DNA of 63,947 nt, filler included, from 5 parts of 5 records of this genome joined end to end with filler, not necessarily neighbours in it; one strand, 5' to 3'. Positions 15,091 through 34,030 are shown, counted from the whole stretch's first letter. Numbers and translations are program-made. Notes: generated by a model from the letters alone, not told the origin.

Positions 15091-15658
15091 ATTAAAATCG
15101 AATTACCTTTACGGAATTATGCTAACATTTGAAATATATTTATTAAAACATAACAAATGAAATTTAAATAATTTTAATATCCAAATTTTACCAGTATTAT
15201 TTTAAAATATACTTTTCTAATTTTTAATTGTAATATCACTTTTTAATTTAGGAAAACATTTATTTTTATAATATGGTTGCATTTTATATTTAGAATCTAT
15301 AAAATTAAATTCATTCAAGTATAATAGAAATTTAGCAATGTAAAATTATAGTTTCGTTAATTGATTTTATTACTATGAAAGGTTATATATAATTAATGAA
15401 AGGTTATATCTTTATTAAGATTTTAGGAAAGACAAAAGGAAAAACCTGAAACTCTAAAAACAAAGGCGTATGGATCAAAAAGCAAGGTATATGTCGGTTT
15501 TAAATACCTCTTTATGAAAAAAATAGAATTAGCACATAAGAATATAAATGCCAACTTTAAGTAGAAGTGCTTTGGTATTATTTATTAGTAGAAAGACGAG
15601 ATATTTAAAACACGAAAGAACAACAACTAATACTTTTGTTCGCTTGATAAGCACGAGC

Positions 15659-15696
15659 AAAAAAAATCCCCCAATCGAATTAACGAAAGGGGGATT
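15659..15696 (-). terminator. Intrinsic terminator after the Smr gene
   Basis: AATCCCCC...GGGGGATT stem with a long T-run on the minus strand. Confidence 0.8.
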
Positions 15697-15733
15697 GCAG
15701 AATAAATTTATTGAGACTTGATACTCGTATCTT

Positions 15734-16762
15734 TTATATAATTACCATTGTGGCTCCGTAGCCGTATTCTTTAAAGGAGGCATCCTGCCAGGTGTGCCAG
15801 CTATATTTTCTTTTTAAAGCCTTTAGTATCTCCGACTTTAAAACACCATCTCCTTTACCATGAATAAAAACAATTTTCCGGTTAGCGTTATCCTTATTTT
15901 CAGCCATTACCTTATGAAACTTCTCCATTTGATAATCCAGCATATCTTTATTAGACATACCTCGTGTATCATCAAGCAATTCATTAATATGCAAATCCAC
16001 TTCCAACAACACTTTATTATCCTTTCTAGCTACTGGCGCTATTTTCTTCTTCGGATCTTTATCGCGAACTACCTGTTTAATCTCCTTATCGGTTAATTGC
16101 TCTATTTTTTGTTCGAGCGTGCTTTTTACAATATAATATACAATGGCCTCCTCGTTAAAATATGCATTGGTATGGTAACTGGAATCTTTTAAAAGCTTAC
16201 TTCCTGAAAATTTAATTTTAAAGTCGACCGGCTTTTGAGGGGTAAAATCTTTCTTCTTCCTACATAAGAGCATTTGTATTTGATAGGTCACACCATCAAG
16301 TAAATTAACCGGAACATTATCTAAATTCACTTTTGTATTTGGCTCTATTTGTCCGGAAAAAGCCAATTGACATCGTTCCTCCTGTTTAGAACTGATTGTA
16401 TAAAAAGCGTAGAAGTTAGAATCATTAATCAGGTAAATATTTACATTTCCCGACAAATCAGCATCGCGCACACAAGCAATAACAATGCGGGGTTCCCCTT
16501 CTTCATCACTCTCTTCTACAGCCATTTCAGCAGACTCAAAACCAGTTTCATCAGGAGTCTTTTCAGCTACATCGCCTGATTTTTTTTCAACAATCACCAC
16601 TTCGGTGGCCATAACAGGCACCTCAAAACCATCTTCATCCAACACATAAATCACATTGTTTTTCTCGGTTCTACTTACGGTGCCTCCACCAACATCATTT
16701 AAAAAACGGACTTTATCTCCAACTGAAATTTTCATTTGCTCAATATTTTGACTTTTTAGCAT
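15734..16762 (-). CDS. DUF2027 / Smr (MutS2 C-terminal) domain protein; likely start 16735
   Basis: N-terminal VGDKVRFLNDVGGG; C-terminal EVDLHINEL...IVFIHGKGDGVLK...DASFKEYGYGAT Smr motif. Confidence 0.9.
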   Translation of the reverse strand: MLKSQNIEQMKISVGDKVRFLNDVGGGTVSRTEKNNVIYVLDEDGFEVPVMATEVVIVEKKSGDVAEKTPDETGFESAEMAVEESDEEGEPRIVIACVRDADLSGNVNIYLINDSNFYAFYTISSKQEERCQLAFSGQIEPNTKVNLDNVPVNLLDGVTYQIQMLLCRKKKDFTPQKPVDFKIKFSGSKLLKDSSYHTNAYFNEEAIVYYIVKSTLEQKIEQLTDKEIKQVVRDKDPKKKIAPVARKDNKVLLEVDLHINELLDDTRGMSNKDMLDYQMEKFHKVMAENKDNANRKIVFIHGKGDGVLKSEILKALKRKYSWHTWQDASFKEYGYGATMVII

Positions 16763-16887
16763 CTACACTATTCCACGCTCAATTAACTCATATTTAGAGC
16801 ACACATAGATTTAAGCTATACTAAAAGATTAATAACAGGTAGTATCCTTCAACAGAATTCTATGACTCTATTTAAAGGAAGTGATGT

Positions 16888-16895
16888 CAAATATA
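16888..16895 (-). promoter_or_regulatory. Bacteroidota -7 box (TATATTTG) upstream of the Smr gene
   Basis: TAnnTTTG match between the upstream terminator and the gene start. Confidence 0.5.
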
Positions 16896-16910
16896 CATTT
16901 TTTAGGACAT

Positions 16911-16953
16911 AAAAATAGCTGCACGCTACTATTTATAGCATATGCAGCTATTT
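16911..16953 (-). terminator. Intrinsic terminator after 16965..17618
   Basis: AAATAGCTGCA...TGCAGCTATTT inverted repeat with T-run on the minus strand. Confidence 0.75.
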
Positions 16954-16964
16954 ACATACTTTAC

Positions 16965-17618
16965 TTATTTCACTACTTTTCCGAGTGCTTCAAGTAGTTG
17001 CGGTTGATCTTCGAGTCCAATTTTAGCTACGGCATAAAACTCTTGCATCCACTCATCCAACTTTGCAAAAGCCATATCTTTTTTCATGGTAGCATCCTGA
17101 CTTTCGCCTTTTTCTTTCAGGTATTCACCTCGATTAGTTTCTACTGTAGTTATTAATGCCTTTGCTTGTTGCACTTCAGCATCCGTAACTTTTAATTTAC
17201 TCATGGCATTCAACAAAGGCACATCGGTAAACAAGGTGTTGTAAAACTTCTTAATGCTTTCCATTTTTTTAATATAAGACGAAGGATATGCTCCACTCAC
17301 AGCTAAACGTTCCAAAATCTCCGGACTTTTTCGGAAAACCACTTTGGCTTTTTTTCGATGACCTTTAAACAATTCCTCGAGTTCCTCAAAAGATTGACTG
17401 AAGTTTGCATAAGCACTTGCTGTTTCATCCTCCTCTTTATCGTTATTTTCGTACACCTCGCGGGTAAAGCTCCAAAGCTGCTTTCCTTCTCCGATGGTTT
17501 GACTATCATAACCTAATTCTGCTAATACATTAGCAATTACGTCCTGGCGTTCTGCATTTTCAAGACCAATTCTATAAACCTCAAGGGTTTGGGCATCACT
17601 TAAATTGTAATTTTTCAT
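16965..17618 (-). CDS. Hypothetical all-helical protein, paralog of 14434..15090
   Basis: 217-aa ORF; GYD...EGK, KKAKVVF, GESQDAT, LDEWMQEFYAVAKIGLEDQPQLLEALG. Confidence 0.8.
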   Translation of the reverse strand: MKNYNLSDAQTLEVYRIGLENAERQDVIANVLAELGYDSQTIGEGKQLWSFTREVYENNDKEEDETASAYANFSQSFEELEELFKGHRKKAKVVFRKSPEILERLAVSGAYPSSYIKKMESIKKFYNTLFTDVPLLNAMSKLKVTDAEVQQAKALITTVETNRGEYLKEKGESQDATMKKDMAFAKLDEWMQEFYAVAKIGLEDQPQLLEALGKVVK

Positions 17619-17738
17619 GATTTGATTAATTTAAATAATTAAGAAAACGATTATTAAGTTAATGGAATTTACGAATATATTCCGCATCTAAACCACATAT
17701 TTTTAATGATATGTGATAATTCTTTATTAAAAGATGGT

Positions 17739-17746
17739 TACTTTTG
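17739..17746 (+). promoter_or_regulatory. Bacteroidota -7 box (TACTTTTG) upstream of queA
   Basis: TAnnTTTG match about 45 nt before the ATG. Confidence 0.6.
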
Positions 17747-17790
17747 GCGCCACAAATACACAAACGTGTAGATTCGCTAAGTAACAAGAA

Positions 17791-18039
17791 ATGAATACGC
17801 CAGAGATTAAGATTAAGGATTATACCTACGAATTACCTGAAGACAGAATTGCCAAATACCCATTAACCAATCGTTCCGATTCAAAATTATTGGTTTATAA
17901 TAATGGTATTACCGAAGATCAATTTCACAATATATCATCTTATTTACCCAAGAACAGTTTATTGGTATTTAACAACACAAAGGTAATTCAGGCTCGTTTG
18001 CTGTTTAAAAAAGAAACCGGTGCTAAAATCGAAATCTTT
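17791..18039 (+). CDS. queA: S-adenosylmethionine:tRNA ribosyltransferase-isomerase, 5' part (contig end)
   Basis: DYTYELPEDRIAKYPL..RSDSKLL...LLVFNNTKVIQARL. Confidence 0.92.
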
Positions 18040-18139
18040 NNNNNNNNNNNNNNNNNNNNNNNNNNNNNNNNNNNNNNNNNNNNTTAATTAATTAANNNNN
18101 NNNNNNNNNNNNNNNNNNNNNNNNNNNNNNNNNNNNNNN
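18040..18139. other. Artificial contig linker (N-run / TTAATTAATTAA / N-run)
   Basis: 100-nt spacer with six-frame stop; identical at all four junctions. Confidence 0.98.
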
Positions 18140-19011
18140 ACGGTGCATCTACTGAAATCATTGTGGCTGGTTCAACAACTGTTCAGCCAGTAAGTGAGCT
18201 TATAGCAAAAGCATACATGGAAGAAAACAAAGGTGTTAAAATAACAGTACAGGCTGGCGGTTCCGATGCAGGTATTGCTTCAGCTGGTATGGGAATCATT
18301 GATGTAGGTTCAGCATCCAAGTTCACCCCTGACGCCGCAAAGACTAAATATCCAGACCTTGAAGAGCACGTAATCGGTGGTTCTGCAGTAGTTGTAATAA
18401 CCAACACAGCAACTCCGGGTGTAGCTTCAACAACTACTCCATTAACAGCTGCACAGCTTCTTACAATTTATGATTCCAACAACGCAAACGCTGACGCAGC
18501 ATTTGTATCAGGTGTTGTAGCTGTCCAGAGAACCGAAGGTTCAGGCACAGAAGAAACATTTGCAAAGTTTGTTACCTCTAAAGCTTCTAGCAACGTAGAT
18601 GATGCAGTTGATGAAGGTACAGCTGTTGTTCAGGCAAATGCTATTGGAAACCAGGGTGTCCTCGACAAAGTAGCAACTACCTCTAGTGCAGTTGGATTTG
18701 TAGACTATGGATTTGCAAAGGATGACAGTAGGGTAACAATCATCGGTGTCGACCCTGCAGTTACAGGTTATACTGCAATTGCTTCAGTCACAGGTGACGA
18801 TGTTGAAGCTGGTGTAAAGGCAAGACTCTCAGATATATCAACAACTGAGACCAGTGCTACTTACTACCCAGTAGAACTCTGCCGTCCACTTGTTTACCTG
18901 ACAAACGGTGAACCTTCCTCTATAGTAAACAACTATATTCAGTTCGCAATGTCTCCTGCATCCCTGGACTCATTCCATGAAGTAGGATACTACGGTATAA
19001 CTGAGCTTTAA
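18140..19011 (+). CDS. pstS: Phosphate-binding protein PstS family, N-terminus missing (open to contig edge)
   Basis: AGSTTVQP, GGSDAGI, RTEGSGTEETF, ELCRPLVY; frame open from the contig edge (GASTEIIVAG...). Confidence 0.9.
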
Positions 19012-19093
19012 GTATAGCATTTGAATAAAAGGCAATTGTTGTGCGATAGTGTATCTATCGTTCAACAATTCTATTTTTAGTATTAGGATACAC

Positions 19094-19996
19094 ATGAAAA
19101 ATGTTGAGTCGAGTTTTTTCTGGCTTTTTTTAGCCGGTTGTACATTTCTGACAGCTACTATCACCATCTTCTTTGTAGGATTTATATTCTATGTAGCTTA
19201 TCCTGTTTTTCAAACTCAGGGACTATATTTTTTGTACGGAGATGTTTGGAATTACACAAATGAAATTTTTGGGATACGTAACTTCATTGCCGGTACATTT
19301 GCAATGACAATAGTAACAATGATGATCGCTTTACCTGTAAGTCTTTTTACTGCTATATTCCTTGCAGAGTATGCGCCAAAAATAGTTGTTGCGACTCTCC
19401 GTCCTATGATTGAGTTACTGGTGGGAATACCTTCTGTCGTTTATGGTATTTTCGGACTATTTATACTGGAAGACATATTTGAATATGTAATAGATCCCTT
19501 CATTGAATCTTATCTAGGTTTTATTCCTTTGTTTGTTGATTATGGGCATGATGGTCAGGGCGTCTTACTTGCTTCTACTGTGTTAGCAATAATGATATTG
19601 CCAACAATTATTACGATTGCGGAAGATTCACTACGCTCAGTTCCTTATCCTTATAAAGAAGCTTCTTTTGCTTTGGGGGCAAACCATTGGCAAACCATAA
19701 AAAAAATTGTAATACCTTCAGCTTTCAGAGGCATAATGCTTGGAGCTGTATTGGGTATGATGCGGGCTATGGGTGAAACTATGGCAATAGTAATGCTCCT
19801 TGGAAATATCCCGCGAGCTCCACGTGGAATACTGGATTCTGGCTATGCTATGACATCTAAAATTCTAAATGATATTACCTATCATATGATTGATGATGCT
19901 TCACGCAGTGCATTGTTTGGAATAGCAGCTGTTCTGTTTTTAATTGAAATAATTGTAGTTCTCATATCTAGAAAGATAGGGGGGAAAGTAATATGA
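19094..19996 (+). CDS. pstC: Phosphate ABC permease PstC
   Basis: ELLVGIPSVVYG, EASFALGA, MRAMGETMA; ATG at 19094 preferred to GTG at 19049. Confidence 0.93.
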   Translation: MKNVESSFFWLFLAGCTFLTATITIFFVGFIFYVAYPVFQTQGLYFLYGDVWNYTNEIFGIRNFIAGTFAMTIVTMMIALPVSLFTAIFLAEYAPKIVVATLRPMIELLVGIPSVVYGIFGLFILEDIFEYVIDPFIESYLGFIPLFVDYGHDGQGVLLASTVLAIMILPTIITIAEDSLRSVPYPYKEASFALGANHWQTIKKIVIPSAFRGIMLGAVLGMMRAMGETMAIVMLLGNIPRAPRGILDSGYAMTSKILNDITYHMIDDASRSALFGIAAVLFLIEIIVVLISRKIGGKVI

Positions 19997-21036
19997 GTAA
20001 AATAGACTCTTCTATTGAAGTAGAAGTTGTACATAAAAATGGTGGATTGTTTGATTTACTGAAACGAACGATTATAACTAAAGATAGTTCCCATCTATCG
20101 GATTATTTTAAATCAATTATTAAATATGAAAACTGTTCAAGAAAGCATATATTAAAATTTGAAAGTTTATTGTTTAAAAGTTTTTCATATTCAGCAGCAA
20201 TTTTAACAGTGTTTGCTCTTTTTTTTATTTTGGGAAATGTATTTATCAAAGCCTTGCCAAGCCTTTCTCTTGACTACATATTAACATCTGAATCAGATCA
20301 TATGGAGCTTGGAGCGGGCATAGCTAACGCAATTGTAGGTTCATTGTTGCTGTCTTTAGGTTCTACTTTAATTGCTACTCCACTTGCTGTAGGTGCTGCA
20401 ATCTACATGAAAAGATATGCAAAAAAAAATATGTTTACAAGTATTTTTAGTATTTTTATTGATGTTCTTTCTGGCACCCCCTCAATTGTTTTAGGCATAT
20501 TTGGTTTGTTTTTCCTTGTGTTTTTGATGAGGACATACACTGGTGGATTTTCTTTGATTTCTGGCGTACTAGCACTTTCAATATTGATATTGCCTGTAAT
20601 AGAGAGATCGACTGAGAATGCAATAGATACAGTTCCTAAAGAACTCGAAGAAGCAAGTTATGCGCTAGGAGCAAATCGTTTTGAAACTGTAAAGAATATC
20701 ACTCTTCCTTATTCGCTAGGCGGCATTCTTACAGGAGTTGTGATTGGCGTAGGCAGAGCAGCAGAGGAGTCTGCAGTTGTTGTTTTAACAGCGGGATATT
20801 CTCAATTCATGCCTGAAATAGGAGCTAGAGGAAGTGTAGATAATTTTGGTGGACTAAAATTTTATCCATTTCAGGATTTAGTAGGTTCTTTACCAATGTG
20901 CGTTTATAGATCATTTGAATTTCCGAGTATGATCTCTCCATCCAAAGGCTTTGCTGCAGCTTTTGTTTTAATTGTAATGGTTATGATTATCAATTCGATA
21001 GCTCGCTTGATCGTATGGAGGCGCAGAATTGGTTAA
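19993..21036 (+). CDS. pstA: Phosphate ABC permease PstA
   Basis: LSGTPSIVLG, EASYALGA, GRAAEESA; ATGA overlap with pstC. Confidence 0.92.
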   Translation: MSKIDSSIEVEVVHKNGGLFDLLKRTIITKDSSHLSDYFKSIIKYENCSRKHILKFESLLFKSFSYSAAILTVFALFFILGNVFIKALPSLSLDYILTSESDHMELGAGIANAIVGSLLLSLGSTLIATPLAVGAAIYMKRYAKKNMFTSIFSIFIDVLSGTPSIVLGIFGLFFLVFLMRTYTGGFSLISGVLALSILILPVIERSTENAIDTVPKELEEASYALGANRFETVKNITLPYSLGGILTGVVIGVGRAAEESAVVVLTAGYSQFMPEIGARGSVDNFGGLKFYPFQDLVGSLPMCVYRSFEFPSMISPSKGFAAAFVLIVMVMIINSIARLIVWRRRIG

Positions 21037-23251
21037 ACTAAAATTGAAACAAAAATCTAGCAAAAAGAACAGATCTGAACCTCCATCTATATCATTAGAT
21101 GAAATTGTTGCTCCTGAAGAGTCAGAATTTGTTCATTTGGCTGGGGATGAAGAAGAAACTGATGATATCGAATCTTTTTCCAGTGTGGACACTGGCGTAA
21201 AAATAGATAAAGACGTTTCTCCTCTTTTACCGGGCGAGATCAGCGGGGATAGCGATCTGGATATTTCAGTTCCTGTCTGGGAAGACTCTGGAGAAGGTAC
21301 AGAGGGAAATACAATTGCTGATGACTTTCCTTTAGATAAAGATGATATAGATCTAATTGAAAATGAAGAAAAGCCATCTAAAAAGAAAAAATTCAGCATC
21401 GGTCTCAAAAAGGAAAAGGATTCTGCAAGCAAAAAGAAATCTAAGAAATCTGGAGAAAAAACAGAAAATCAGGATATGATTGCAGAAGAAAACGAAATAC
21501 CTGATGACAAGTCTTCAAAAAAGAAATCCAAAAAGAAGTCAAAGGGTAAATCAAAAAAGAAATCAAAATTTGGTCTAAAACTGGGGAAAAAGAAGACTAA
21601 TCAGGATGAAACAATTGATGATGCCAATATCCTATCCGAATATGAGCAGGAAGAGGTGTTAGAAAAGGAATCAGGTTTATCACCTCTCCTGAAGAAGATA
21701 GAAAAGATGATAACTCCGGTACCGGAGGATATTGAAGAACTGGAATTTACCGTAGGCGAAATAGCTGTTCCTGCTCCGGGAGTACCTCAGAAGGAAGTGA
21801 ATATCTCCTATGAAGTTACACCGGGTACACAATATGTGCATATCAATTTTGATGGTGAGGCACTGCAGTACCAGTGCATTGAACCTCCTTTAAGTGAAAC
21901 TGAAGAGGAATCTCTTAAGATCATACAGAATGCCTTCGACAAAATGGCTCATTCTGAAATCCTGCTTGTTGAGGAAGAGGACCGTGATGAGGCTTTAAGG
22001 GACAGGTTCAATCTTATTCTGGATATCTACCGGCTAAAACTCAGTGACAGGCAAAAAGACAAATTCTTCTATTACCTGCACAAAAAATACATGGGATTTG
22101 ACAGGATGGATCTTCTGATGAAAGACCCTTACATAGAAGATATTACCTGCAACGGACCCTATACCCCACTCTATGTCAATCACAGGGTTTACGGATCAGT
22201 TGCCACAGATGTTGTCTATGAGGAAATCGAGCTCAACAACTTTGTTATGAGAATGGCACAGGCAGCAGGAAGGCATATCTCAGTCCTTGAGCCCATCAGG
22301 GATGCAACCCTTGTTGATGGCAGTCGTGCAAACCTCACCCTTGGTAAAGAAGTCACAAAAAGGGGTTCTACTTTTACCATCAGGCGTTTCAGGTCCAATC
22401 CTGTTTCCTGTATAGACTTGATGAACTACAAGACGTATGATTCAAGGGTACTCGCCTATTTCTGGCTCATGGTGGAGTATAAACGTTCAGTACTGGCAGC
22501 TGGTGGTACCGCATCCGGTAAAACTACAACGCTGAACGCCCTTGGTGCGTTTATCCCTCCTGAATTCAAAATAGTATCTATCGAAGATACTGCAGAAATG
22601 AATCTAATGCATCCTAACTGGACCCAGTCCATAACAAGAGCCGGTTTTGGAGGCAGTGAGGGTGGCAAGTCTGCAGGAGATATCGAACTTTACGATCTTC
22701 TCAAAGCTGCATTGAGGCAGAGGCCTGAATACATAGTTGTTGGTGAGGTCCGTGGTGCTGAAGCAGGAACTCTTTTCCAGGCAATCTCAGTCGGTCACCC
22801 CTGTATGGGGACTATACACGCAGGTTCAATACACGAACTGCTCTCTAGGGTTGAATCAGAGCCCATGAATGTGCCTCGTAATCTTTTTGCCAGTGTGGAC
22901 ATGGTAATATTTAACTCCATGATAAAAGTCGGAGAACATTTCCTCAGACGAGCTTTAAGGATCGTGGAAATAGCTGAGCTTGATCCGGAACGCGGTGATC
23001 TTATCACAAATCCGGTGTTCAAATGGAACCCTGTAACCGACGAGTACGAATTTGGCGGCAGTAGTGCTCTTTTTGATGACATAAACGAGGAATTTGGTAT
23101 TGAACAGGCTGAGCTTGTACAGGAGATGGATCTAAGGGCACAGTATCTTGAAAGTCTTGCCAGGGATGGTATCACCGAATATGAATCCGTTGCAAAAGCC
23201 ATCAGGAAATACTCCAGACATAAAGATGAACTGATGGAGATGAATCATTAG
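21029..23251 (+). CDS. Archaeal type IV pilus / type II secretion ATPase (FlaI/PilB/VirB11 family) with a long charged N-terminal extension
   Basis: DPYIEDITCNG, Walker A GGTASGKTT, SIEDTAE, ALRQRPEYIVVGEVRG, GHPCMGTIHA. Confidence 0.93.
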   Translation: MVKLKLKQKSSKKNRSEPPSISLDEIVAPEESEFVHLAGDEEETDDIESFSSVDTGVKIDKDVSPLLPGEISGDSDLDISVPVWEDSGEGTEGNTIADDFPLDKDDIDLIENEEKPSKKKKFSIGLKKEKDSASKKKSKKSGEKTENQDMIAEENEIPDDKSSKKKSKKKSKGKSKKKSKFGLKLGKKKTNQDETIDDANILSEYEQEEVLEKESGLSPLLKKIEKMITPVPEDIEELEFTVGEIAVPAPGVPQKEVNISYEVTPGTQYVHINFDGEALQYQCIEPPLSETEEESLKIIQNAFDKMAHSEILLVEEEDRDEALRDRFNLILDIYRLKLSDRQKDKFFYYLHKKYMGFDRMDLLMKDPYIEDITCNGPYTPLYVNHRVYGSVATDVVYEEIELNNFVMRMAQAAGRHISVLEPIRDATLVDGSRANLTLGKEVTKRGSTFTIRRFRSNPVSCIDLMNYKTYDSRVLAYFWLMVEYKRSVLAAGGTASGKTTTLNALGAFIPPEFKIVSIEDTAEMNLMHPNWTQSITRAGFGGSEGGKSAGDIELYDLLKAALRQRPEYIVVGEVRGAEAGTLFQAISVGHPCMGTIHAGSIHELLSRVESEPMNVPRNLFASVDMVIFNSMIKVGEHFLRRALRIVEIAELDPERGDLITNPVFKWNPVTDEYEFGGSSALFDDINEEFGIEQAELVQEMDLRAQYLESLARDGITEYESVAKAIRKYSRHKDELMEMNH

Positions 23252-24169
23252 ATGGTTAAGACCAGGGATGTTGATGTCCATCAGGCTTTCAACGACGGGC
23301 CAACTAACACGTACATAGAAAAATACAAAATGTTTTGTTATGTATTTGGAAAAAAAATAGATAAAACGCCACAGGAAGATGTTGCTAAATCCCTTTATCA
23401 GGCAGATATGGTCCTGACTCCGGGGATGTTCATCTCGCTTGCGCTTGTAACGGCTGCCCTGGCTTCAATTGTGGTCTTCATAATGTCAGTGGTACTTTTC
23501 CGAGCTTCCTCATCTCCTCTCGTTTACATTTCAGTTCTGACATTCCTGACATTTGGTCTTACGGTAAGCAGCTTTCCTTTTATGCTCTACAACAAAGTAT
23601 CCAACAAAAACATGAATATAGAGCATGATCTCCCTTTTACGTTAGGTTACATGACAATTCTTGCAAGCTCAGGTTCATCCCCAATGGATGTCATCAGGAA
23701 AGTCGCTATAGAGGATTACGGGGATGTTTCAACTGAATTTGGTAAGGTCATGTACCGTGTGGATGTTCTGGGAGAAGATGGTGTATCTGCAATGAACCAT
23801 TTGATTCGTAACACTTCATCCGAATCACTCAGGACCATATGTATTGATCTTGCAAATGCCATGCAGTCAGGGGGAGGATTGCGTACATACCTTGACATGA
23901 AATCAAGGGAGCTAATGGACATGAGAAGAAAAATGCAGCAGGAATTTGTAGATTCGCTTGCTGTTTACGGTGAAGGTTATCTCAGCGGCGTTGTCATGAG
24001 TGTAGTACTTGTGGTATTGATGATCGTGGTAACCAGTGCCCTTGGAATCGATCTTGGTCCTTTCACTGCAAAACAGATGTTTCAGTTTTTCGTGTATTTT
24101 ATGTTACCTTTCATAAACATAGTTTTCCTGATCTTACTCTGGATGAAATATTCAAGGAGTAGTCTATGA
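23252..24169 (+). CDS. Type II secretion system F / TadC-like platform protein
   Basis: Multi-TM; LPFTLGYMTILASSG, YGDVSTEF, SGGGLRTYL; abuts the ATPase stop. Confidence 0.88.
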   Translation: MVKTRDVDVHQAFNDGPTNTYIEKYKMFCYVFGKKIDKTPQEDVAKSLYQADMVLTPGMFISLALVTAALASIVVFIMSVVLFRASSSPLVYISVLTFLTFGLTVSSFPFMLYNKVSNKNMNIEHDLPFTLGYMTILASSGSSPMDVIRKVAIEDYGDVSTEFGKVMYRVDVLGEDGVSAMNHLIRNTSSESLRTICIDLANAMQSGGGLRTYLDMKSRELMDMRRKMQQEFVDSLAVYGEGYLSGVVMSVVLVVLMIVVTSALGIDLGPFTAKQMFQFFVYFMLPFINIVFLILLWMKYSRSSL

Positions 24170-25518
24170 ATATTGAAAAATATCGTCTTATATTAGAACG
24201 CTATTTCAGAATACTGACTCTTCGGTATGATATAAAACGTGAATTCATTACACTTGGTATCCCGATAGTTATTGCTTTAACAATATTGCTACTTGCAGTT
24301 CTGACAGGGCATTCTTTTGTAACTGATGAAGCAAATGCAGGAGGGCCTGTTAGCGATGAAGCTGCTACAAAAAAAGCTGCTTATGAAGCAATTGTTGCTG
24401 AGATGGAGGCAGCTGAGGCTGCTGAACGTGGTGAAGTTGTAGAGGAAGAACAAATTGAACCTGAACCTGAAGAAGAGGAATCTAAAGATGACCTGGACCA
24501 TATAATGGTCTTTGCTGTACTTGTAGCAATTATTCCGTATTCAATCGATTCGTTTAATCAGAAAAGGATGCTTCAGAAAAGGGAGGTTGCATTTAGTGAA
24601 TTTCTTTATAAATTATCGGAATTGATGAGGGGTGGTATAGATCCTGTAAAAGGTTTTATCAACCTTTCCAAAACAAATCTCGGTGCCATCGGTACTCATG
24701 CTCAGGATGCTGCTTCTGCCATGGTGCTGGGCAAATCTTTTGAAGAATCTATGCACAGGATGTCAGATTCAATGAAAAGCCGTCTTGTTGCACGATATAT
24801 TGATATCGTTGTCCAGGCTGCATATACCGGAGGTAATGTTGCCGATCTTTTGTTCCGTACTTCAGAAGACATGAGATCTGTAATCGCAATTCAAAAGGAA
24901 AAAGAGGCAAACCTGAAACAGTACGTTGTTATTTTCTATCTGGCCCAGGGTATCATTGTGATGCTTACATATATTCTTTCAACATCCCTTCTTCCTCTCA
25001 TACAGGGAGTAGGTATGGAGATGCTAGGAGGAGCCGGACTTTCTGATATTGATTTTGAACGCGGCTTTTTCCATATGATAATTATCAACGCCCTTTTTGG
25101 GGGCCTGATTATCGGACAGATAACAGAAGGTGAAATTAAACACGGGTTTAAACATTCGGCAATCCTGATTACCTTAAGCTACATTGCATGTGTAACTTTA
25201 CTTTTACCTGCCGGAGTTGGTGCTTCTTATGGCATAGCTGTTGTTTCAGGCGACGGACAGGAAGTTATGGGCGGTCTTCCATTGCAGGAACCTATTATAT
25301 TTAATGTCACAGATTCAGGTGGGAATCCTGCTCCCGGTATATTTGTCGAGATGTCCATGTCACCGGAGGGTATCATAACCAGTGCAATGACCGATGAAGG
25401 TGGAACAGTTTCCGTATCTCCAGTTCCCGGTTCTCAGGGAGGAACATATATTGTCACTGCAAAAGCAGGCGAATCTACAGGTTCTGCAACAATTGTGGTA
25501 AATGATGGAGGAGATTAA
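24166..25518 (+). CDS. Type II secretion system F / TadB-like platform protein with a C-terminal Ig-like domain
   Basis: FLYKLSELMRGG, TGGNVADLL, GQITEGEIKHGFKH; C-terminal VVSGDGQ...VTDSGGNP...YIVTAKAG beta-sandwich. Confidence 0.85.
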   Translation: MNIEKYRLILERYFRILTLRYDIKREFITLGIPIVIALTILLLAVLTGHSFVTDEANAGGPVSDEAATKKAAYEAIVAEMEAAEAAERGEVVEEEQIEPEPEEEESKDDLDHIMVFAVLVAIIPYSIDSFNQKRMLQKREVAFSEFLYKLSELMRGGIDPVKGFINLSKTNLGAIGTHAQDAASAMVLGKSFEESMHRMSDSMKSRLVARYIDIVVQAAYTGGNVADLLFRTSEDMRSVIAIQKEKEANLKQYVVIFYLAQGIIVMLTYILSTSLLPLIQGVGMEMLGGAGLSDIDFERGFFHMIIINALFGGLIIGQITEGEIKHGFKHSAILITLSYIACVTLLLPAGVGASYGIAVVSGDGQEVMGGLPLQEPIIFNVTDSGGNPAPGIFVEMSMSPEGIITSAMTDEGGTVSVSPVPGSQGGTYIVTAKAGESTGSATIVVNDGGD

Positions 25519-25782
25519 TCTCCTCTTCTTATTTATCGATGGGCTTATTTCAAGACTTTCTTCATACATTTTTAAACATAGCAAAGGGCATATAATCTCT
25601 AACACTCTTAAAAAAATAGGTCTTTTATATTTGCTTGCTATTCTTCTAAATAGGCTGGGGATAGCATATATAGTTCATAGAGAGAGGCATAGACAAAATA
25701 AAGTACTGATTTATTTTTTTTGATTAAAATTTACATAGCTAAATTTTTATCCCAATTTTCTGTTATTTACTCGGGATTCTTG

Positions 25783-26961
25783 ATGCAGGCTGGTTCAGAT
25801 AAAGAAAGTGAATTGAAAAAACATATTAAAAGACTTCAGAGCGGTATACTATCAAGTTCAGGTAAAAGATGTGATGCTGCAAAGTCTCTTGAAAGATTAG
25901 GAGACGACAAAGCAGTTCCACATCTTATCAAAGCACTGGAAAAAGAAAAAGACGAAAATGTGATCAAATGCATAAGTAATTCACTGGTAAGCTTTGCTGA
26001 TCCATGTACTGTCCCTGTTTTATTCGCAAAATTGTTCCAGGTACCGGGAGAAACTAAAAAAGCAGTTTTATCTTCAATAGATGCCTGTATCAGTGATGAA
26101 AACATAGATTTCTTTATAAAAACAGCACTTAGCGATAAACTCCACAAAAGAAAACTTGCTATAAAGTATCTAGGAAAACTGGAAAGTACTGATGCAATTT
26201 CTGATCTTCTCAGATTGCTAAATGACAAGGAAGAAGATATCAGAACAACTGTTATGTCTTCTCTGGAATCTTTTCCCCCGGAACATGTCATTCTTCATGC
26301 AGAAAATGAAATGAAAAATGCTGACAGGTACTATGCCATCCATATAGCAGAACTTCTGGATAGTCTCAATAGCCCACTTGCAGTACCGATATTACTGGAT
26401 ATGCTGGAAAGCAATGATCCTATTCTGCGAAGCAGTGCTGCCAAAGCCATCGATAAATGTGCTGACGAAAGTTCGGTTGGATTATTGATGGATTCAATTG
26501 AACATGATAGTCCAAATGTGAAATGTTTTGCAGTAAAAAAGCTTCTTTCACTGGGAGGCAAAGTACCTATTGAAACTTTGATGGCTCTTCTTGAAGACAA
26601 AAACGATTCTGTACGTAGTTGTGCTGTGGAAGGCCTTGCAGCTATAGAGGACCCTGCGATACTGGATATATTAAAAAAAGTAATGCAGGAAGATAATGAT
26701 GGCTGGGTACGCAAGCTGGCTGCCAATTCTGTGATGGAAAAAGAGAATAGGATAATTAAAGAGTCTTTAAAATCTGAAAATGACAAAGGGAAAAATGAGG
26801 TTCCAGGCAACTCAGATCCTGGAAGTTTGTCCGATGCTACGAAACAAAATAAGAATTCTTTTTCTTATTGTCTTTACTGCGGTAAGAGTCTGGATTTTGA
26901 ATCTGCACCAGTTTTCTGTCCTTTCTGCGGTCAGCGCCTACCTGATAGCAGTAAAGTGTAA
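25783..26961 (+). CDS. HEAT (PBS-lyase-type) repeat protein with C-terminal zinc ribbon
   Basis: Repeats of LxxLxDxxxxVRxxAxxxL; C-terminal CLYC...CPFCG; ATG at 25783 preferred to TTG at 25720. Confidence 0.85.
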   Translation: MQAGSDKESELKKHIKRLQSGILSSSGKRCDAAKSLERLGDDKAVPHLIKALEKEKDENVIKCISNSLVSFADPCTVPVLFAKLFQVPGETKKAVLSSIDACISDENIDFFIKTALSDKLHKRKLAIKYLGKLESTDAISDLLRLLNDKEEDIRTTVMSSLESFPPEHVILHAENEMKNADRYYAIHIAELLDSLNSPLAVPILLDMLESNDPILRSSAAKAIDKCADESSVGLLMDSIEHDSPNVKCFAVKKLLSLGGKVPIETLMALLEDKNDSVRSCAVEGLAAIEDPAILDILKKVMQEDNDGWVRKLAANSVMEKENRIIKESLKSENDKGKNEVPGNSDPGSLSDATKQNKNSFSYCLYCGKSLDFESAPVFCPFCGQRLPDSSKV

Positions 26962-27022
26962 TTTGGTAATTTGAAATGATTCTTGATTTTTCAATCAATA
27001 GTCAGAGGAGGAATAGCAAAAA

Positions 27023-27718
27023 TTAACCTACCCTTTCTCTTGTATCCATGGTAATACCCATGCTTGTTACATTGTAAGCAATCATTTTTTCCAGGGGCAG
27101 GCTTCCTTTCATTTTAGGAATGTTTATGAAACGGTTAATCTTTCCACTGGTATACTCAGTCCTGAATTGTATGACTCCGTCAACCATAGAGCGAATTATT
27201 TTTTCGGCTCTTTCCGGGAGTATTCCCATATCTGCAGATAGTAGAAAAGTAACATTTGCTTCCCTGCTGATGCTTATAAGTGCCAGTATTGTTTCAGATA
27301 TTACTTCGATTTCCTCATGAAGTAAAAGTGCTGAAAACATATCGATTATGCATACATCTGTTTCAATTATTTTATGTAACATTTCTGAATTTGTTCCATA
27401 AAGCCGGTTGGTTAGTTTATGTCTCTTGTAACATATATCCAGCAAAGCTACAGGATCTGCAAAATTCCCAATGATTGAAAGATTATCTATTGTACTGTTA
27501 ATGCCTGATGTGTTTAGTTCTTCAACAATAATTTCTTTAGAGCTTCTGGTGGAAATATAGTACACTTTTTTGTCCATCTTAAGAGCATCAGAAGTTACCT
27601 TATGAAAGAAAACGCTTTTAACGTCACCTATATCTTCTTCTATTAACAGTACCACATTGCTGGGTACGTTTTTCAAACCAAAGCTAGTCAGTACCATTAA
27701 ATCCCTAAAAGTAATCAT
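27023..27718 (-). CDS. RAD55/KaiC/FlaH-like RecA-fold protein with a degenerate P-loop
   Basis: VVLLIEEDIGDVKS (atypical Walker A), VYYIST, CIIDMFS, MVDGVIQF...IPKMKG; terminal DTRERVG typical of this archaeal family. Confidence 0.75.
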   Translation of the reverse strand: MITFRDLMVLTSFGLKNVPSNVVLLIEEDIGDVKSVFFHKVTSDALKMDKKVYYISTRSSKEIIVEELNTSGINSTIDNLSIIGNFADPVALLDICYKRHKLTNRLYGTNSEMLHKIIETDVCIIDMFSALLLHEEIEVISETILALISISREANVTFLLSADMGILPERAEKIIRSMVDGVIQFRTEYTSGKINRFINIPKMKGSLPLEKMIAYNVTSMGITMDTRERVG

Positions 27719-27822
27719 TGCTTATATTATTTTGGAATAAAACATCAAAATATATAGAGTATGTATGCCTATATATATTCCATAAATAAAGTATATAATC
27801 AGTTATACGCTTTTCATCAGAG

Positions 27823-28923
27823 ATGGCTGGAAACGATTTACATACGTTTTTGCATGATATACGTGGAGTTTCTGTAATCTTTGGAACCCTGTTATTGGTT
27901 CTGATTACAATAATTGCTGCTTCAAGTGTTGCTTTTATGATATCCACCATGCAGAAGGATGCCATGGAACGCGAGAGCCATCAGGCTTCAGTAGAAAATG
28001 AAGAACTTAAGATTGTATCCGTAGATCTTAATCCATACACAAATGGGACATTGGAATCAATTGATCTGAAGATACTCAATTTTAACACTGAGGATTCTTA
28101 TATTTCAGCTACTAGCATAAACGATGGCTATTTCCTTCATTTCAAAGCGTACGATGATAACGGTAATTTTGATACATACAGGAATTATCCTGCAATATAT
28201 ACTGCAAATCATAGAGTCAAGATTCCAGCTACAAAAAGTAAAACTATTCATCTGAATGTTTCAGATATCACAGTAAATGGAGCAGAAACCATTAATTCTA
28301 TGTCTCTGTGGGATGACGATAGGCTTAATTTTACTTATCCTCTTGAAAAACATCCCTGGGAAGCTTATGGTGAAGTTCACTATGATTACCATGTGAACAC
28401 TTCTGGAACTGCAACAGAACACAATGCAGCTGGAAATTTTTTCATTGACAATGAAACTCGGAAAATAACATTTAATGGATCAAATTATGGTGGAAGTTTA
28501 ACAAATACATCAGACTATGATGTATTTTATACAGTTGACTTTAGTTCATATAGGGGCTATCCCCTTCCTGCCAATGAACCTCTCAAAGTCGAGATTTTTA
28601 CATCTTATATTAATGTCTTCAAGGAACTTTTCGCTCCACCTATGCCAGTAGCTGAAGTGCAATACAAAACAGAAGATGTATTTGGTACACCTACTAACTA
28701 TCTAATACTCGATGCTACTAATTCCATAGATTCCGATGGCTTTATTACAAGTTATAAGTGGGCAGTAAATGATTCAACCACAGTATGGTATGACTACAAT
28801 TTGTCAGGAATGGTTGTAAGATGTAATTACAGCAATGACCTCACTATCGACCTGGAACTAACCGACGATGACGGCATGACCTCCAGGCTCAGTCAGGTTT
28901 CAGGTAACCTGACAATCAATTAA
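27823..28923 (+). CDS. Archaeal type IV pilin (class III signal peptide) with C-terminal PKD-like domain
   Basis: DIRG|VSVIFGTLLLVLITIIAASSVAF prepilin motif; C-terminal LDATNSIDSDGFITSYKW...LELTDDDG. Confidence 0.88.
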   Translation: MAGNDLHTFLHDIRGVSVIFGTLLLVLITIIAASSVAFMISTMQKDAMERESHQASVENEELKIVSVDLNPYTNGTLESIDLKILNFNTEDSYISATSINDGYFLHFKAYDDNGNFDTYRNYPAIYTANHRVKIPATKSKTIHLNVSDITVNGAETINSMSLWDDDRLNFTYPLEKHPWEAYGEVHYDYHVNTSGTATEHNAAGNFFIDNETRKITFNGSNYGGSLTNTSDYDVFYTVDFSSYRGYPLPANEPLKVEIFTSYINVFKELFAPPMPVAEVQYKTEDVFGTPTNYLILDATNSIDSDGFITSYKWAVNDSTTVWYDYNLSGMVVRCNYSNDLTIDLELTDDDGMTSRLSQVSGNLTIN

Positions 28924-28972
28924 TTATTTATTCGCATAATTTATTCATTAGTTTCATAAAATTAAAGGAAGG

Positions 28973-30034
28973 ATGCACATTTCAGACAAAAGAAAACTTC
29001 AGTTAACAGGTGGCTCTACATACATAGTTTCCCTTCCGATAGACTGGGTAAGGGAAGGCGGTCTTAATGCAGGTGATACTGTACTTCTGACAGTAAAGCC
29101 GGATCGGTCACTTGTTATAACGCCAGATCAGGGCAAGCAGAAGAAGAACGCCCGTTCTACTGTTGAAATGGTTGCATCCGAGGACAGGGAAGAGAATTTC
29201 AGGAACCTTGTTGCTAATTATCTTGTAGGGTATGATATTATCAAAATCATATCTCCGGGAGGTTTTTCAGCTGCAGAGCGTAAATACCTGAAAGAATCTG
29301 CCCGCAAGCGTCTCATAGGTATAGAAATAGTCGAAGAGTCCAGGACTGAGATAATACTTCAGAATCTCCTTAATTTCCAGGATATCTCCCTTGAAAAGTC
29401 CCTGCAGAGCATGTTCCGAATCATTCATTCAATGATGGAGGACTCTATTGTTGCCTTAAGAGAGGCGGATGTTGAGCTTGCAAAAGATATTGTACAGAGG
29501 GACAACGATGTTGACAAATTCTATCTATTAAGTGTCAGGCAGATCAAGGCTGCGCTTGATGATTCAAATCTTGCCCAGAAACTTGGTGTTCGCTCATCCA
29601 AGGACTGTCTTGGCTACCGTCTTATCGTAAAACTCATGGAACGTATAGGTGACCATGTCCATAGCATTGCACATACAGTTATCCTGATGAAAGGCCAGAA
29701 AAATAACAATGACAGCATAATTGAACTGGGCATACTTTCCCAGAGATTGTTCAATGAGTCTTTTAATTCTGTACTGGAGATCAATCCGGAGCTTGCAAAT
29801 CATGTCATAAGGACATCAAAAATGTCTAATGCTCTTGCAAACAAAATTGTTCTTAAATCCGAGTTATCTGAAAGTACAAATTCCCTGTACGGTGAAAGAC
29901 AGAGAAAAATAGTAGAGAGTTTCCAGAGAATCGCTGAATACAGTGCGGATATCTCTGAAATGGTCATTAACATAAAGGCAACTGATATCAAAGAGTCACT
30001 TTCAGGAGAGTCCAAGATACTCAAAGAGGCTTAA
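28973..30034 (+). CDS. phoU: Archaeal phosphate-uptake regulator (AbrB-like N-domain + two PhoU domains)
   Basis: RKLQLTGGSTYIVSLPIDWV; DNDVDKFY; MERIGDH; QRIAEYSADI. Confidence 0.9.
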   Translation: MHISDKRKLQLTGGSTYIVSLPIDWVREGGLNAGDTVLLTVKPDRSLVITPDQGKQKKNARSTVEMVASEDREENFRNLVANYLVGYDIIKIISPGGFSAAERKYLKESARKRLIGIEIVEESRTEIILQNLLNFQDISLEKSLQSMFRIIHSMMEDSIVALREADVELAKDIVQRDNDVDKFYLLSVRQIKAALDDSNLAQKLGVRSSKDCLGYRLIVKLMERIGDHVHSIAHTVILMKGQKNNNDSIIELGILSQRLFNESFNSVLEINPELANHVIRTSKMSNALANKIVLKSELSESTNSLYGERQRKIVESFQRIAEYSADISEMVINIKATDIKESLSGESKILKEA

Positions 30035-30397
30035 TCTGACAAATATTACCATCAGGTTGTTAACTACCAGCACCAGTCCCAGGGTGCTGATTCCTATTTT
30101 TGAGAACTCCCAGAGTTTTTTGGCGTAAGAATGGACTGAACTTCTCACTGATCTGTAATTCCAGTATATTACAAGCAGTATCATGAGCTTGACAATCAGC
30201 AGTGACCATATTCCAAACCCAGACATTACGCCTGCAAGCAGACCGTTTTCCTCAAACCCGTACCCATTGCTAAGTGCGTGGAATGTTGTCAGGAAATCCC
30301 CTACAATGTAGAGCAGAATGATGTACCTTGCGTCGTAAATGAATTCTGAGATCTCTTTTGTGCTGAGCACTCCTTTATTGATGTTTTTAGAGAACAT
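30002..30397 (-). CDS. Small membrane protein (DUF5658-like)
   Basis: GDFLTTFHAL...GFEENG motif with 3-4 TM segments; 3' end overlaps phoU. Confidence 0.65.
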   Translation of the reverse strand: MFSKNINKGVLSTKEISEFIYDARYIILLYIVGDFLTTFHALSNGYGFEENGLLAGVMSGFGIWSLLIVKLMILLVIYWNYRSVRSSVHSYAKKLWEFSKIGISTLGLVLVVNNLMVIFVRLSLFEYLGLS

Positions 30398-30646
30398 ATT
30401 TTCATAGAAGCTTGCTCATATATATTGGTGGAATGTAGTTATTTTGGGAAGTTATGATCATATATTTCTTAATTCAAAATAAATAAAATTAAAATATATA
30501 TTACAGCTTCAAATTATATGTTTCTATATACATGTATATGTTGCAGACAGACAATGAACCTGTGCTCAGGTCAGGCAGTTAAAAAGAGAAATAGTATCCG
30601 CTTAGTAGAAAAGAAAACAAAGAAAAAAGGCTTGAATACCTGAATC

Positions 30647-30746
30647 NNNNNNNNNNNNNNNNNNNNNNNNNNNNNNNNNNNNNNNNNNNNTTAATTAATT
30701 AANNNNNNNNNNNNNNNNNNNNNNNNNNNNNNNNNNNNNNNNNNNN
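30647..30746. other. Artificial contig linker
   Basis: N / TTAATTAATTAA / N. Confidence 0.98.
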
Positions 30747-31399
30747 ATATTGCTCATCAATGGAGACAACCTTTAATGGAACTATCTTCAATAAATATGG
30801 AGCTTCAAGCAAAACTAGAGCTTTTAGGGTCTTTATCAAACGAAGAGATATTAGAAGCAATTAGAAAATCAAACCAAGTTACAAACTATATGTCCCAAAC
30901 AATTGATGATTTTAGAAACTTTTTTGCAAAAGATAAAGATAGAGTTAGGTTTAAAATTTCTGAACAAGTTAGTTCTGCAATTAATATTATCAACTCTTCA
31001 CTAAAACAAAACAACATTAAACTAGAAATAATCATAAAAAAGAACTCAATTATAAAAGGTTATAAAAATGAGTATTCACAAGTTTTAATAAGTATCCTAT
31101 CAAATGCAAAAGATGAACTTATCAATAGAAAAATCCAAAATCCAAAAATTACATTAAAAATTACAGAAGAAGATAACTTAAGTGTAGTGGAGATAGAAGA
31201 TAATGCTGGTGGAATATCAATTGTACCAATCGAAAAAGTGTTTGAACCTTTTATAACAAAAGACAAAAAAAACGGAACAGGAATGGGACTTTTTATGTCT
31301 AAATTGATTGTTGAAAATAATATGGGTGGAAGATTATTTGTAGATAATACTGAAAAAGGTGCAAAATTTAATATTATAGTACCAAAAAGTATTGACTAG
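30747..31399 (+). CDS. Sensor histidine kinase, C-terminal part (5' truncated)
   Basis: H-box IAHQWRQPL at the contig edge (typical of Campylobacterota); TIDDFRNFF, EDNAGGI, GTGMGLFMS. Confidence 0.92.
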
Positions 31400-32098
31400 T
31401 TATTTTATTATAATTTGATATCCAATACCCGATATATTTCGTATAGAATCTTTCCCTACTTTTTTTCTAAGTTTATTCAAAACAGCTTTTAGTGCAGAGT
31501 CTGTAGCTTCAAAACTATCTTGCCATACAGAGTTTTTTATTTCTAGAATAGGTACAACTCTATTTTTATTCTTTATCAATAGTTCTAAAAGTAAAATCTC
31601 TTTAGCCGTAATAGATTGTTCTATTTCATCTTTATATAGTTTCTTTTTTGAAACATTATAGCAAATATCATTTTCAAAAAATATACAGTAATTACCTTCT
31701 AAATAGATCTCTTCTGAGGCTTTAAGTAAAGACTCTTTTAGTTGATAAAAATTTAGAGGTTTTATTAGGTAATCAATAAGTTTTAATTTTGTTGCTTGTA
31801 ACAAAAAAGGTGTGTCTGTATGTGCAGTTAATAAGATAATTGGAATCTTCTTATTTGCTTCTCTAATCTTGCTTGCAAGTTCTAAGCCATTAAGTTTTGG
31901 CATACTAATATCACTTAAAATAATATCAATATGTGTGTTATTAAAAGCTGTTAAAGCTTCAAGACCATTTTCAGCAGTATAAACATTGCGACAAATTAGC
32001 TTAAGAGTTTTCGTTATGTTTTTTCTGATATTTTCTTCATCTTCGACATAAAGGATGTTAAGAGACTTTAAAAACTCTAAAAAATGATTATTATTCAA
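31400..32098 (-). CDS. OmpR-family response regulator
   Basis: ILYVEDE, DIILSDISMP, KP motif, winged-helix LRKKVG...GIGY. Confidence 0.92.
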   Translation of the reverse strand: MNNNHFLEFLKSLNILYVEDEENIRKNITKTLKLICRNVYTAENGLEALTAFNNTHIDIILSDISMPKLNGLELASKIREANKKIPIILLTAHTDTPFLLQATKLKLIDYLIKPLNFYQLKESLLKASEEIYLEGNYCIFFENDICYNVSKKKLYKDEIEQSITAKEILLLELLIKNKNRVVPILEIKNSVWQDSFEATDSALKAVLNKLRKKVGKDSIRNISGIGYQIIIK

Positions 32099-32234
32099 AA
32101 TTTACCTTTTTATTTACAATTATACTACAAAAAACAAAATAAATAAATAATAAAAAAATAAAAAAAGTTTTTTTTTATAAGCAACTTTTAGCAACTTTTT
32201 TGTAAAATTGCTTATATTTGTAAAAAGGGTTGTT

Positions 32235-34022: not shown

Positions 34023-34030
34023 GGAAAACT

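Follow-up and report, generated by a model that had tools for sequence, protein, structure and literature searches.

To our knowledge, only one archaeal type IV filament (T4F) machine is known to act for nutrient-binding proteins, the Sulfolobus bindosome, whose structure has never been observed. In the published text on this system, ATP-binding cassette (ABC) substrate-binding proteins carry class III signals, and to be localised functionally at the surface they require a T4F ATPase, a platform protein and pilin-like proteins (PMC4371748, PMC13705601). A survey in PLoS Genetics from 2026 counts, in its text, 4,397 candidate class III-signal binding proteins in archaea and proposes widespread bindosomes. 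The same text states that these proteins mostly lie beside ABC transporters and not in T4F clusters, and that their tie to specific T4F loci needs validation, a missing tie to which a reviewer of the study also points (PMC13705601). For the Gram-negative bacterium Pseudomonas aeruginosa, the text of two papers describes PstS-containing outer-surface appendages under phosphate limitation (PMC2242829, PMC3949141). Here we analyse a locus at positions 18140-30646 of a 63,947-nucleotide stretch of DNA (the window), in which genes of a Pst phosphate transporter are joined to genes of a T4F machine. We read it as a phosphate version of the Sulfolobus bindosome, that is, as a paralogous, PstB-less PstSCA set built into a dedicated T4F module, and assign this reading a probability of about 0.6.

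The window consists of five contigs joined by runs of N (1-18039, 18140-30646, 30747-39812, 39913-51979 and 52080-63947), and the locus fills the second of these, with 12,507 bases. Families were assigned to its 11 genes by Pfam and NCBIfam profiles. The cluster starts on the plus strand with pstS (18140..19011; PBP_like_2, E 3e-18), which is cut at its 5′ end by the contig edge; the artificial junction at 18040..18139 consists of two 44-N runs flanking a 12-base linker. It continues on the same strand with the permease genes pstC (19094..19996, with an alternative GTG start at 19049; TIGR02138, 286.2 bits, cut-off 196.45) and pstA (19993..21036, encoding about 60 extra N-terminal residues; TIGR00974, 251.6 bits, cut-off 193.45), a gene for a T4F assembly ATPase (21029..23251) and two genes for platform proteins (23252..24169 and 24166..25518). 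A pilin gene (27823..28923, plus strand) and a gene encoding an AbrB/SpoVT DNA-binding domain together with two PhoU domains (28973..30034, plus strand) lie further downstream. From pstC onward the reading frames are tightly packed: pstC and pstA overlap by 4 bases (19993/19996), pstA and the ATPase gene by 8 bases (21029/21036), the end of the ATPase gene abuts the start of the first platform gene (23251/23252), and the two platform genes again overlap by 4 bases (24166/24169). The initial annotation, made from the sequence alone, had given gene order, strands and junction coordinates correctly, including the truncation of pstS and the position of the pilin and AbrB-PhoU genes behind the platform genes, and its family assignments are confirmed by the profile searches. 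It had not listed a HEAT-repeat gene at 25720-26961, an ArlH-like gene on the minus strand at 27023-27718 and the lack of pstB. What it had called a Pst transporter is present with pstS, pstC and pstA; it is incomplete, as no pstB was found here or in 19 related loci.

Since the pst genes are joined to a private pilus machine and since PstS of related loci starts like a pilin, the cells probably carry their phosphate trap on a surface structure resembling a pilus. PstS would be synthesised with a class III (prepilin-type) signal, and a single A24 prepilin peptidase, as present in related genomes, would cut it just before a conserved V-S-P-I-V-A-T-L segment. The ATPase and the platform would lift the hydrophobic N-terminal helix of PstS out of the membrane, and PstS would join the locus pilin in a short filament or an envelope-spanning structure. 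A Ser/Asp-rich linker of some 20 residues would hold the phosphate-binding domain at the surface layer (S-layer) or outside it. Captured phosphate would be handed to the co-encoded PstCA permease, which most likely borrows PstB from the canonical pstSCAB-phoU operon, because its EAA coupling loops are kept. The AbrB-PhoU protein would probably couple expression to phosphate status. We infer cleavage, assembly into a structure, PstB sharing and regulation as steps of this mechanism.

The linkage of pst and T4F genes was followed through 78 loci, obtained by an ATPase-alignment scan with one genome per species. Pst genes lie beside the ATPase gene in all eight loci with more than 50% ATPase identity (L001-L008). 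The recurring order is pstS-pstC-pstA-ATPase-platform-platform-(ArlH-like, minus strand)-pilin; it was seen in Methanolobus, a Methanosarcinaceae metagenome-assembled genome (MAG), Methanomethylovorans, the contigs L004 and L005 and a Methanocellaceae MAG, and rearranged versions are present in Methanoculleus and Methanoregula. A maximum-likelihood tree of 107 ATPase cores was calculated by a quick IQ-TREE search, with support from the Shimodaira–Hasegawa-like approximate likelihood ratio test (SH-aLRT) only. One clade of 19 sequences (SH-aLRT 100) comprises all 14 PstS-linked loci, two contigs that are cut inside pstC or pstA, and three others. Pst genes are found in 16 of the 19 loci inside this clade and in none of the 88 outside, and no PstS homologue lies within 12 kb of any of these 88 ATPases. 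The clade spans Methanosarcinales, Methanomicrobiales, Methanocellales and Thermoplasmata. All three Thermoplasmata loci have an AbrB-PhoU gene nearby, and in two of the three, the class III-type proteins encoded upstream of the ATPase gene belong to PBP_like_2 as well. The arrangement is not due to chance; it is found again in relatives from four archaeal orders or classes.

Sampling of 401 genomes of the phylum gave 26 ATPase matches at or above 492 bits in 24 genomes. A PstS match lies within 11 kb on the same strand for 21 of these matches; after inspection of the remaining loci, PstS linkage was found for 24 matches and in 23 genomes. The loci concerned include that of genome G111, which has pstS-pstC-pstA at a contig end, that of G231, with two class III-signal PBP_like_2 proteins and two AbrB-PhoU genes, and a degenerate copy on the Methanocellaceae chromosome. 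G385, with two loci, is the only one of the 24 genomes without linked PstS. Eight genomes of the sample have weaker PstS matches and no clade ATPase. Within the clade, L092 has PstS directly beside the ATPase without permease genes, and L091 shows the order pstC-pstA-pstS-ATPase; therefore PstS and the machine are the constant pair.

The start of the PstS protein encoded in the window is cut off, and every statement on its signal rests on orthologues. Aligned to its closest full-length homologues, the fragment lacks about 55 residues at the N-terminus, comprising signal, helix and linker; residue 2 of the fragment aligns to residue 56 of the homologue P0235 (57% identity). A pilin-type motif is present in all of the five nearest full-length homologues of the fragment, and a pilin-type N-terminus in all six full-length linked PstS proteins (L001, L002, L003, L006, L007, L008). 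These proteins start with a short charged stretch, followed by A/G and a hydrophobic segment V/I-S-P/V-I/V-I/V-A-T-L (VSPIVATLVL-type). Judged by this N-terminus, linked PstS has the pattern of an archaeal type IV pilin, and the pilin of the locus has the same pattern. Among the 120 best database homologues of linked PstS from M. profundi, 114 have the strict motif, many of them with the classical R-A before V-S-P; the remaining six are three N-terminally truncated sequences and three near variants. Unlike linked PstS, the canonical PstS proteins of M. profundi and Methanomethylovorans have lipobox-like signals.

The Pfam model Pilin_N aligns to PstS in register from its first positions, and its scores stay under the cut-off. 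For this reason an independent profile was built from an alignment of ten locus pilins, of which only the first 62 columns were used, and searched against 10,142 stop-to-stop open reading frames (ORFs) from 1.45 Mb of loci. Below the pilins themselves, its matches are linked PstS proteins, with E values between 5e-8 and 0.01; the canonical PstS genes among these ORFs are not found. Furthermore, an alignment of 40 PstS sequences revealed that 25 of the 33 positions from 14 to 46 are at least 90% conserved, compared to 68 of 281 in the rest of the protein. Such N-terminal conservation exceeds the need of a plain anchor. Two expectations of the initial annotation are thereby borne out: full-length PstS orthologues carry a pilin-type leader and no lipobox or class I signal (all six linked proteins, 114 of 120 homologues, and the match to the pilin profile), and the pst-pilus linkage is conserved in Methanosarcinales and Methanomicrobiales, to which Methanocellales and Thermoplasmata are now added (16 of 19 loci inside the clade, 0 of 88 outside). 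The interpretation given there, a pilus induced by phosphate starvation that would display PstS beyond the S-layer, is supported in part.

The remainder of the protein is a predicted PstS-type phosphate-binding domain. The 5′-truncated PstS of the window scores 66.9 bits with PBP_like_2, above the cut-off of 27, and 88.7 bits with TIGR02136, below the cut-off of 206.6. A profile of 40 family members gave 30 matches to solved structures, all of them phosphate-binding proteins (best 4gd5, E 5e-29). The GS-T, GS-G and R..SGT segments are shared with 4gd5, and the matching positions are invariant or nearly so in the 40 sequences; we take these segments to hold the residues that touch phosphate. 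An AlphaFold2 (AF2) model of PstS with a mean predicted local distance difference test (pLDDT) value of 86.5 has a helix at residues 16-39, a Ser/Asp-rich linker of low confidence and, from residue 60, a confident two-lobe binding-protein fold.

Several observations weigh against a phosphate bindosome. The PstS N-terminus on which this reading depends is absent from the contig itself. Pilin_N reaches only 8.5-11.9 bits in four of five full PstS proteins, with no match in the fifth, and 15.6-17.9 bits when the search is limited to residues 1-60, which is still under the cut-off. Three of the 19 clade loci (L009, L094, L095) show no Pst genes. The Methanocellaceae chromosomal copy (L008) appears to be decaying, with a TAA stop in the PstA frame and with the phosphate-binding segments of PstS lost. 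All 19 clade loci, which cover 6-22 kb each, lack a PstB homologue, and transport via linked PstCA would rest on PstB lent in trans. Finally, the modelled helix of PstS has 24 residues and is followed by the low-confidence linker, whereas the AF2 model of the locus pilin has a helix of 46 residues. Because this helix is short and the linker floppy, PstS may not be a filament subunit but a binding protein that is processed and stays tethered to the membrane.

The main rival explanation builds on this last point. PstS would be cut by the prepilin peptidase and stay anchored in the membrane, and the Ig-domain (immunoglobulin-domain) pilin alone would form an adhesive pilus whose regulation is shared with that of phosphate uptake and which might, for instance, attach the cells to phosphate-bearing particles. 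Besides the short helix and flexible linker of PstS, the classical 46-residue α-1 helix and the adhesin-like Ig domains of the pilin fit such a division of labour, and with a pilin of its own the locus does not need PstS as a subunit. However, it is PstS and not PstCA that is the constant neighbour of the ATPase (L092, L091), its N-terminus is far more conserved than its binding domain and matches the locus-pilin profile in register, and Pst genes are confined to the loci of one ATPase clade in the counts given above (16/19 vs 0/88). We consider a tethered binder beside a separate pilus possible, though unlikely.

The bindosome reading can also be taken further. A PstS-studded filament might be extended and retracted repeatedly through the S-layer like a fishing rod, with loaded PstS returning to PstCA attached to the machine, and filament dynamics, not only diffusion of a tethered binder, would drive delivery. 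If this were true, the loss of pstB and the overlap of pstA with the ATPase gene would reflect one PstCA-platform-ATPase supercomplex, with PstB lent in trans or dispensable. We regard this version as rather doubtful.

The genes downstream of pstA specify the filament machine of the proposed bindosome. From their sequences, ATPase, platform, a degenerate ArlH-like protein and the Ig-domain pilin can be read as a dedicated T4F module. The ATPase (740 amino acids, TTG start) matches T2SSE (E 9e-32, 110.6 bits, cut-off 24.9) and reaches 416.9 bits with the ArlI/FlaI model, below the cut-off of 550. Its assignment as ArlI was rejected on this ground and because paralogous Methanolobus T4F ATPases obtain the same score (about 423 bits), which makes the ArlI score a generic one. 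Its conserved core is preceded by a low-complexity N-terminal extension of about 240 amino acids rich in Lys, Ser, Asp and Glu.

The two platform proteins have one T2SSF domain each (E 3e-11 and 43.8 bits for the first, E 3e-14 and 53.5 bits for the second, cut-off 25.2). The first is TadC/ArlJ-like. They match the first half (positions 5-239 of 555) and the second half of the ArlJ/FlaJ models, so that the platform is split into an N-terminal and a C-terminal protein. The second protein ends in an Ig-like domain of about 90 amino acids (window 25250-25518; Big_1, E 3.6e-6, below its cut-off), which is kept in L002 and L005. Its position after the last hydrophobic segment suggests that this tail is presumably extracellular, where it could contact PstS, the pilin or the S-layer.

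On the minus strand, the gene at 27023..27718 encodes an ArlH/FlaH-like protein with a KaiC-type ATPase fold (E 5e-10) that reaches 45-47 bits with ArlH/FlaH models (cut-offs 194-215). This minus-strand gene is a conserved part of the system. The glycines of the Walker A motif GxxxxGK[ST] are lost in all 11 aligned orthologues, from Methanosarcinales to Thermoplasmata, and the Walker B aspartate is kept; the protein is probably a non-catalytic partner of the ATPase. The pilin has a class III-type N-terminus (Pilin_N, 24.8 bits, cut-off 25.2), which is conserved in ten orthologues, and a weak PKD_4 match. Its AF2 model (pLDDT 81.5) shows the α-1 helix at residues 13-58, followed by Ig-like β domains that are PKD-like at the C-terminus. 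A specific fold relative was not found, as Foldseek matched the model only to generic Ig/FN3 adhesin-like folds, with TM-scores near 0.2. No gene for an A24 peptidase is among the 11 genes of the contig; each of four related genomes, in which this peptidase, pstB and the canonical operon were assessed, has one (PF01478 above cut-off) away from the locus.

T4F systems also include secretion machines. The same genes could accordingly encode a piston of the type II secretion kind, which would push or release PstS through the S-layer without a lasting PstS-bearing structure, and the presumably extracellular tail of the platform could then contact its cargo. Such a pseudopilus is improbable, since the hydrophobic pilin-type helix would hold PstS in the membrane or in the filament core, and since released PstS could not efficiently return phosphate to PstCA.

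Two further observations concern the ATPase. The N-terminal extension (window 21029-21750) contains long Lys/Ser runs between acidic stretches and is conserved in M. profundi; binding of anionic lipids or polyphosphate by this part is a guess. The lengths of the best 120 ATPase homologues, truncated entries included, range from 410 to 913 amino acids. As for the platform, an Ig-like tail is unusual for proteins of the TadC/ArlJ type.

In the phosphate bindosome, PstCA would be the receiving end of the trap. Linked PstC and PstA have kept the EAA coupling-loop motif, as read by comparison with canonical PstC, which would fit docking of a nucleotide-binding subunit supplied in trans. No ABC ATPase was detected among the 11 genes of the contig with Pfam and NCBIfam, and the ABC ATPases present in two clade loci are unrelated (29% identity). 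In all four related genomes a single PstB exceeds the family cut-off, alongside two PstC/PstA sets, and its gene is located in a separate canonical pstS-pstC-pstA-pstB-phoU operon. The second-best PstB-like match in M. profundi (L083) was rejected as an orphan PstB; it belongs to an amino-acid-type ABC transporter. With linked copies from other orders, linked PstC and PstA share 47-66% identity, and with canonical copies only about 34-43%. They therefore represent an old paralogous set and not a recent duplicate.

The AbrB-PhoU protein (PhoU, E 6.5e-21; MazE/AbrB, E 5.8e-11) is, judged by its domains, a candidate phosphate-responsive regulator. L001-L003 encode orthologues at the corresponding position, and in L009, L010, L015 and L093 orthologues are encoded nearby. 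Such a protein also invites an explanation in which the PstB-less PstSCA set senses phosphate, as in bacterial Pst-PhoU signalling, and switches the pilus on or off together with AbrB-PhoU. The lack of pstB in all 19 loci, a PhoU-domain regulator in or near eight of them, and a canonical pstSCAB-phoU operon that already supplies uptake are in line with a sensor. On the other side, PstC and PstA pass the equivalog cut-offs and keep their EAA coupling loops, the phosphate-binding motifs of PstS are kept, and the pilin-type signal on PstS would be left unexplained; we think a sensor module improbable as well. That two unrelated operons merely abut is hardly credible, since nothing speaks for it beyond the fact that neighbouring genes do not have to interact, and the linkage, in which stop and start codons overlap, has been retained in four orders or classes.

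Related loci supplied further observations on the binding proteins and on the assignment of contigs. PstS of L008 still has a pilin-type N-terminus, and a canonical pst operon lies about 13 kb downstream. The second Methanocellaceae locus, L092, encodes at 28-2106 on the minus strand a 692-amino-acid protein with a pilin-type N-terminus, a PstS-like part and a Peripla_BP_2 domain; it is located near the PstS-ATPase-platform-pilin cluster without permease genes. Peripla_BP_2 is the binding-protein family of iron-siderophore and cobalamin transporters, and L092 suggests that the machine may serve more than one binding protein. L004, filed under Anaerolineales, and L045, filed under Proteobacteria, both have archaeal-type T4F genes, and L004 also has a linked pstA; both are likely mis-binned archaeal contigs.

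Two genes of the contig remain to be mentioned. A gene for a HEAT-repeat protein with a C-terminal zinc ribbon (25720..26961, plus strand; HEAT_2, E 9e-35) was rejected as a part of the system, as it has no match in the 78 related loci and occupies a variable slot, which is empty in L001 and filled by other genes in L002 and L005. The small membrane protein encoded at 30002..30397 on the minus strand belongs to DUF5658 (26 bits, cut-off 25.2). Its gene is convergent with that of AbrB-PhoU, with a 33-base overlap of the 3′ ends (window 30002-30034), and among the related loci it is present only in L001 (M. profundi, 79% identity). Upstream of the M. profundi cluster, at L001 3023-6730, a second AbrB-PhoU paralogue, a small membrane protein and a 682-amino-acid DUF11 surface protein are encoded. 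The DUF11 protein appears to have an ordinary signal peptide and a C-terminal anchor; it may be an envelope partner of the system.

The contig ends 3′ of the locus at a second N-linker (30647-30746, N runs). It is Methanolobus-like, with an ATPase 92% identical to Methanolobus proteins. Its GC (guanine plus cytosine) content is 0.389; GC across the contigs of the window is 0.26-0.39, with 0.26-0.35 for those outside the locus. The flanking contigs (1-18039 and 30747-63947) carry bacterial genes, among them those for QueA, for a response regulator of the OmpR type and for an outer-membrane protein of the TolC family. An archaeon and Gram-negative bacteria are mixed in the record, which is a chimeric bin or else stems from a metagenome.

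That a T4F machine serves binding proteins with class III signals is a concept already published; a form that is specific to phosphate, encoded in an operon, devoid of PstB and equipped with an ATPase clade of its own is not described in the literature searched. Searches on archaeal and methanogen PstS, pilins and class III signals gave no description of a linked PstS/T4F system. The initial annotation had guessed that such loci may appear in comparative surveys of archaeal type IV pili, a guess that the text of two such surveys (PMC4858521, PMC13705601) does not support, as neither mentions them. PstS, phosphate, PhoU and ABC do not occur in the main text of Makarova et al. 2016 (PMC4858521), and the main text of PMC13705601 has 0 occurrences of PstS, phosphate and PhoU, with no phosphate-linked system named in its subsystem table. 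Its supplementary text contains no PBP_like_2, PF12849, phosphate or PstS, a search outside which the figures (S9) fall, where PstS may appear. In its available text, a polyphosphate study linked to Methanolobus PstS covers only the canonical pstSCAB-phoU operons of M. mazei.

The locus is the clearest tie of a binding protein to a T4F machine, with one operon, one ATPase clade, one kind of binding protein (PstS) and a known ligand. As its carriers include cultured methanogens, the bindosome idea becomes directly testable outside the Sulfolobales. Such carriers are Methanolobus tindarius, M. profundi, M. psychrophilus and M. zinderi as well as Methanoculleus marisnigri. The locus shows how archaea bounded by an envelope may reach scarce phosphate, and it poses the puzzle of an ABC permease pair that has long been kept without an ATPase gene of its own.

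Among the systems with which the locus can be compared, the archaellum shares the motor core, namely a secretion-type ATPase, a TadC-family platform and a KaiC-fold ArlH-like protein. Unlike in the archaellum, the proteins stay below the cut-offs of the corresponding models (ArlI 416.9 vs 550, ArlH 45.4 vs 215, ArlJ 64.2 vs 550), the Walker A motif of the ArlH-like protein is degenerate, and no archaellin, ArlF/G or ArlC/D/E was detected by Pfam and NCBIfam among the 11 genes of the contig. The canonical PstSCAB-PhoU system is resembled in the equivalog scores of PstC and PstA, in the fold and motifs of PstS and in a PhoU-domain protein that closes the cluster. It differs in that PstS of the linked type has a pilin-type N-terminus in place of a lipobox, pstB is absent, and PhoU is fused to an AbrB DNA-binding domain.

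With the P. aeruginosa appendages, as far as the text of the two papers describes them, the proposed structure would have in common a phosphate-binding protein on surface appendages; the host there is a Gram-negative bacterium. We know of no pilin-type signal on P. aeruginosa PstS and of no dedicated T4F operon for that protein.

Closest is the Bas bindosome of Sulfolobus, with which the locus shares the class III-type signal on a substrate-binding protein, seen here in orthologues (six of six linked PstS proteins and 114 of 120 homologues), and, as far as gene content can tell, nutrient scavenging as the purpose. The substrate, however, is phosphate here and sugars there, and the hosts are euryarchaeal lineages and Thermoplasmata. 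Mutants in bas are reported to lose high-affinity uptake of glucose. The machine proteins are far from the Bas models (NF053672/NF053673), with 191.4 bits for BasE (cut-off 1000) and 35.5 bits for BasF (cut-off 1300). A split platform with an Ig-like tail, an ArlH-like gene, a PhoU-type regulator and the lack of an ABC ATPase gene further set the locus apart. While the binding proteins of Sulfolobus are encoded with their transporters, away from bas, binding protein, permeases and machine are here united in one cluster. Like the proposal in the text of the 2026 survey (PMC13705601), in which class III-signal binding proteins 'functionalise' T4F machines for scavenging, the locus combines such a protein with such a machine; unlike in the picture drawn there, a single operon and a single ATPase clade hold the link.

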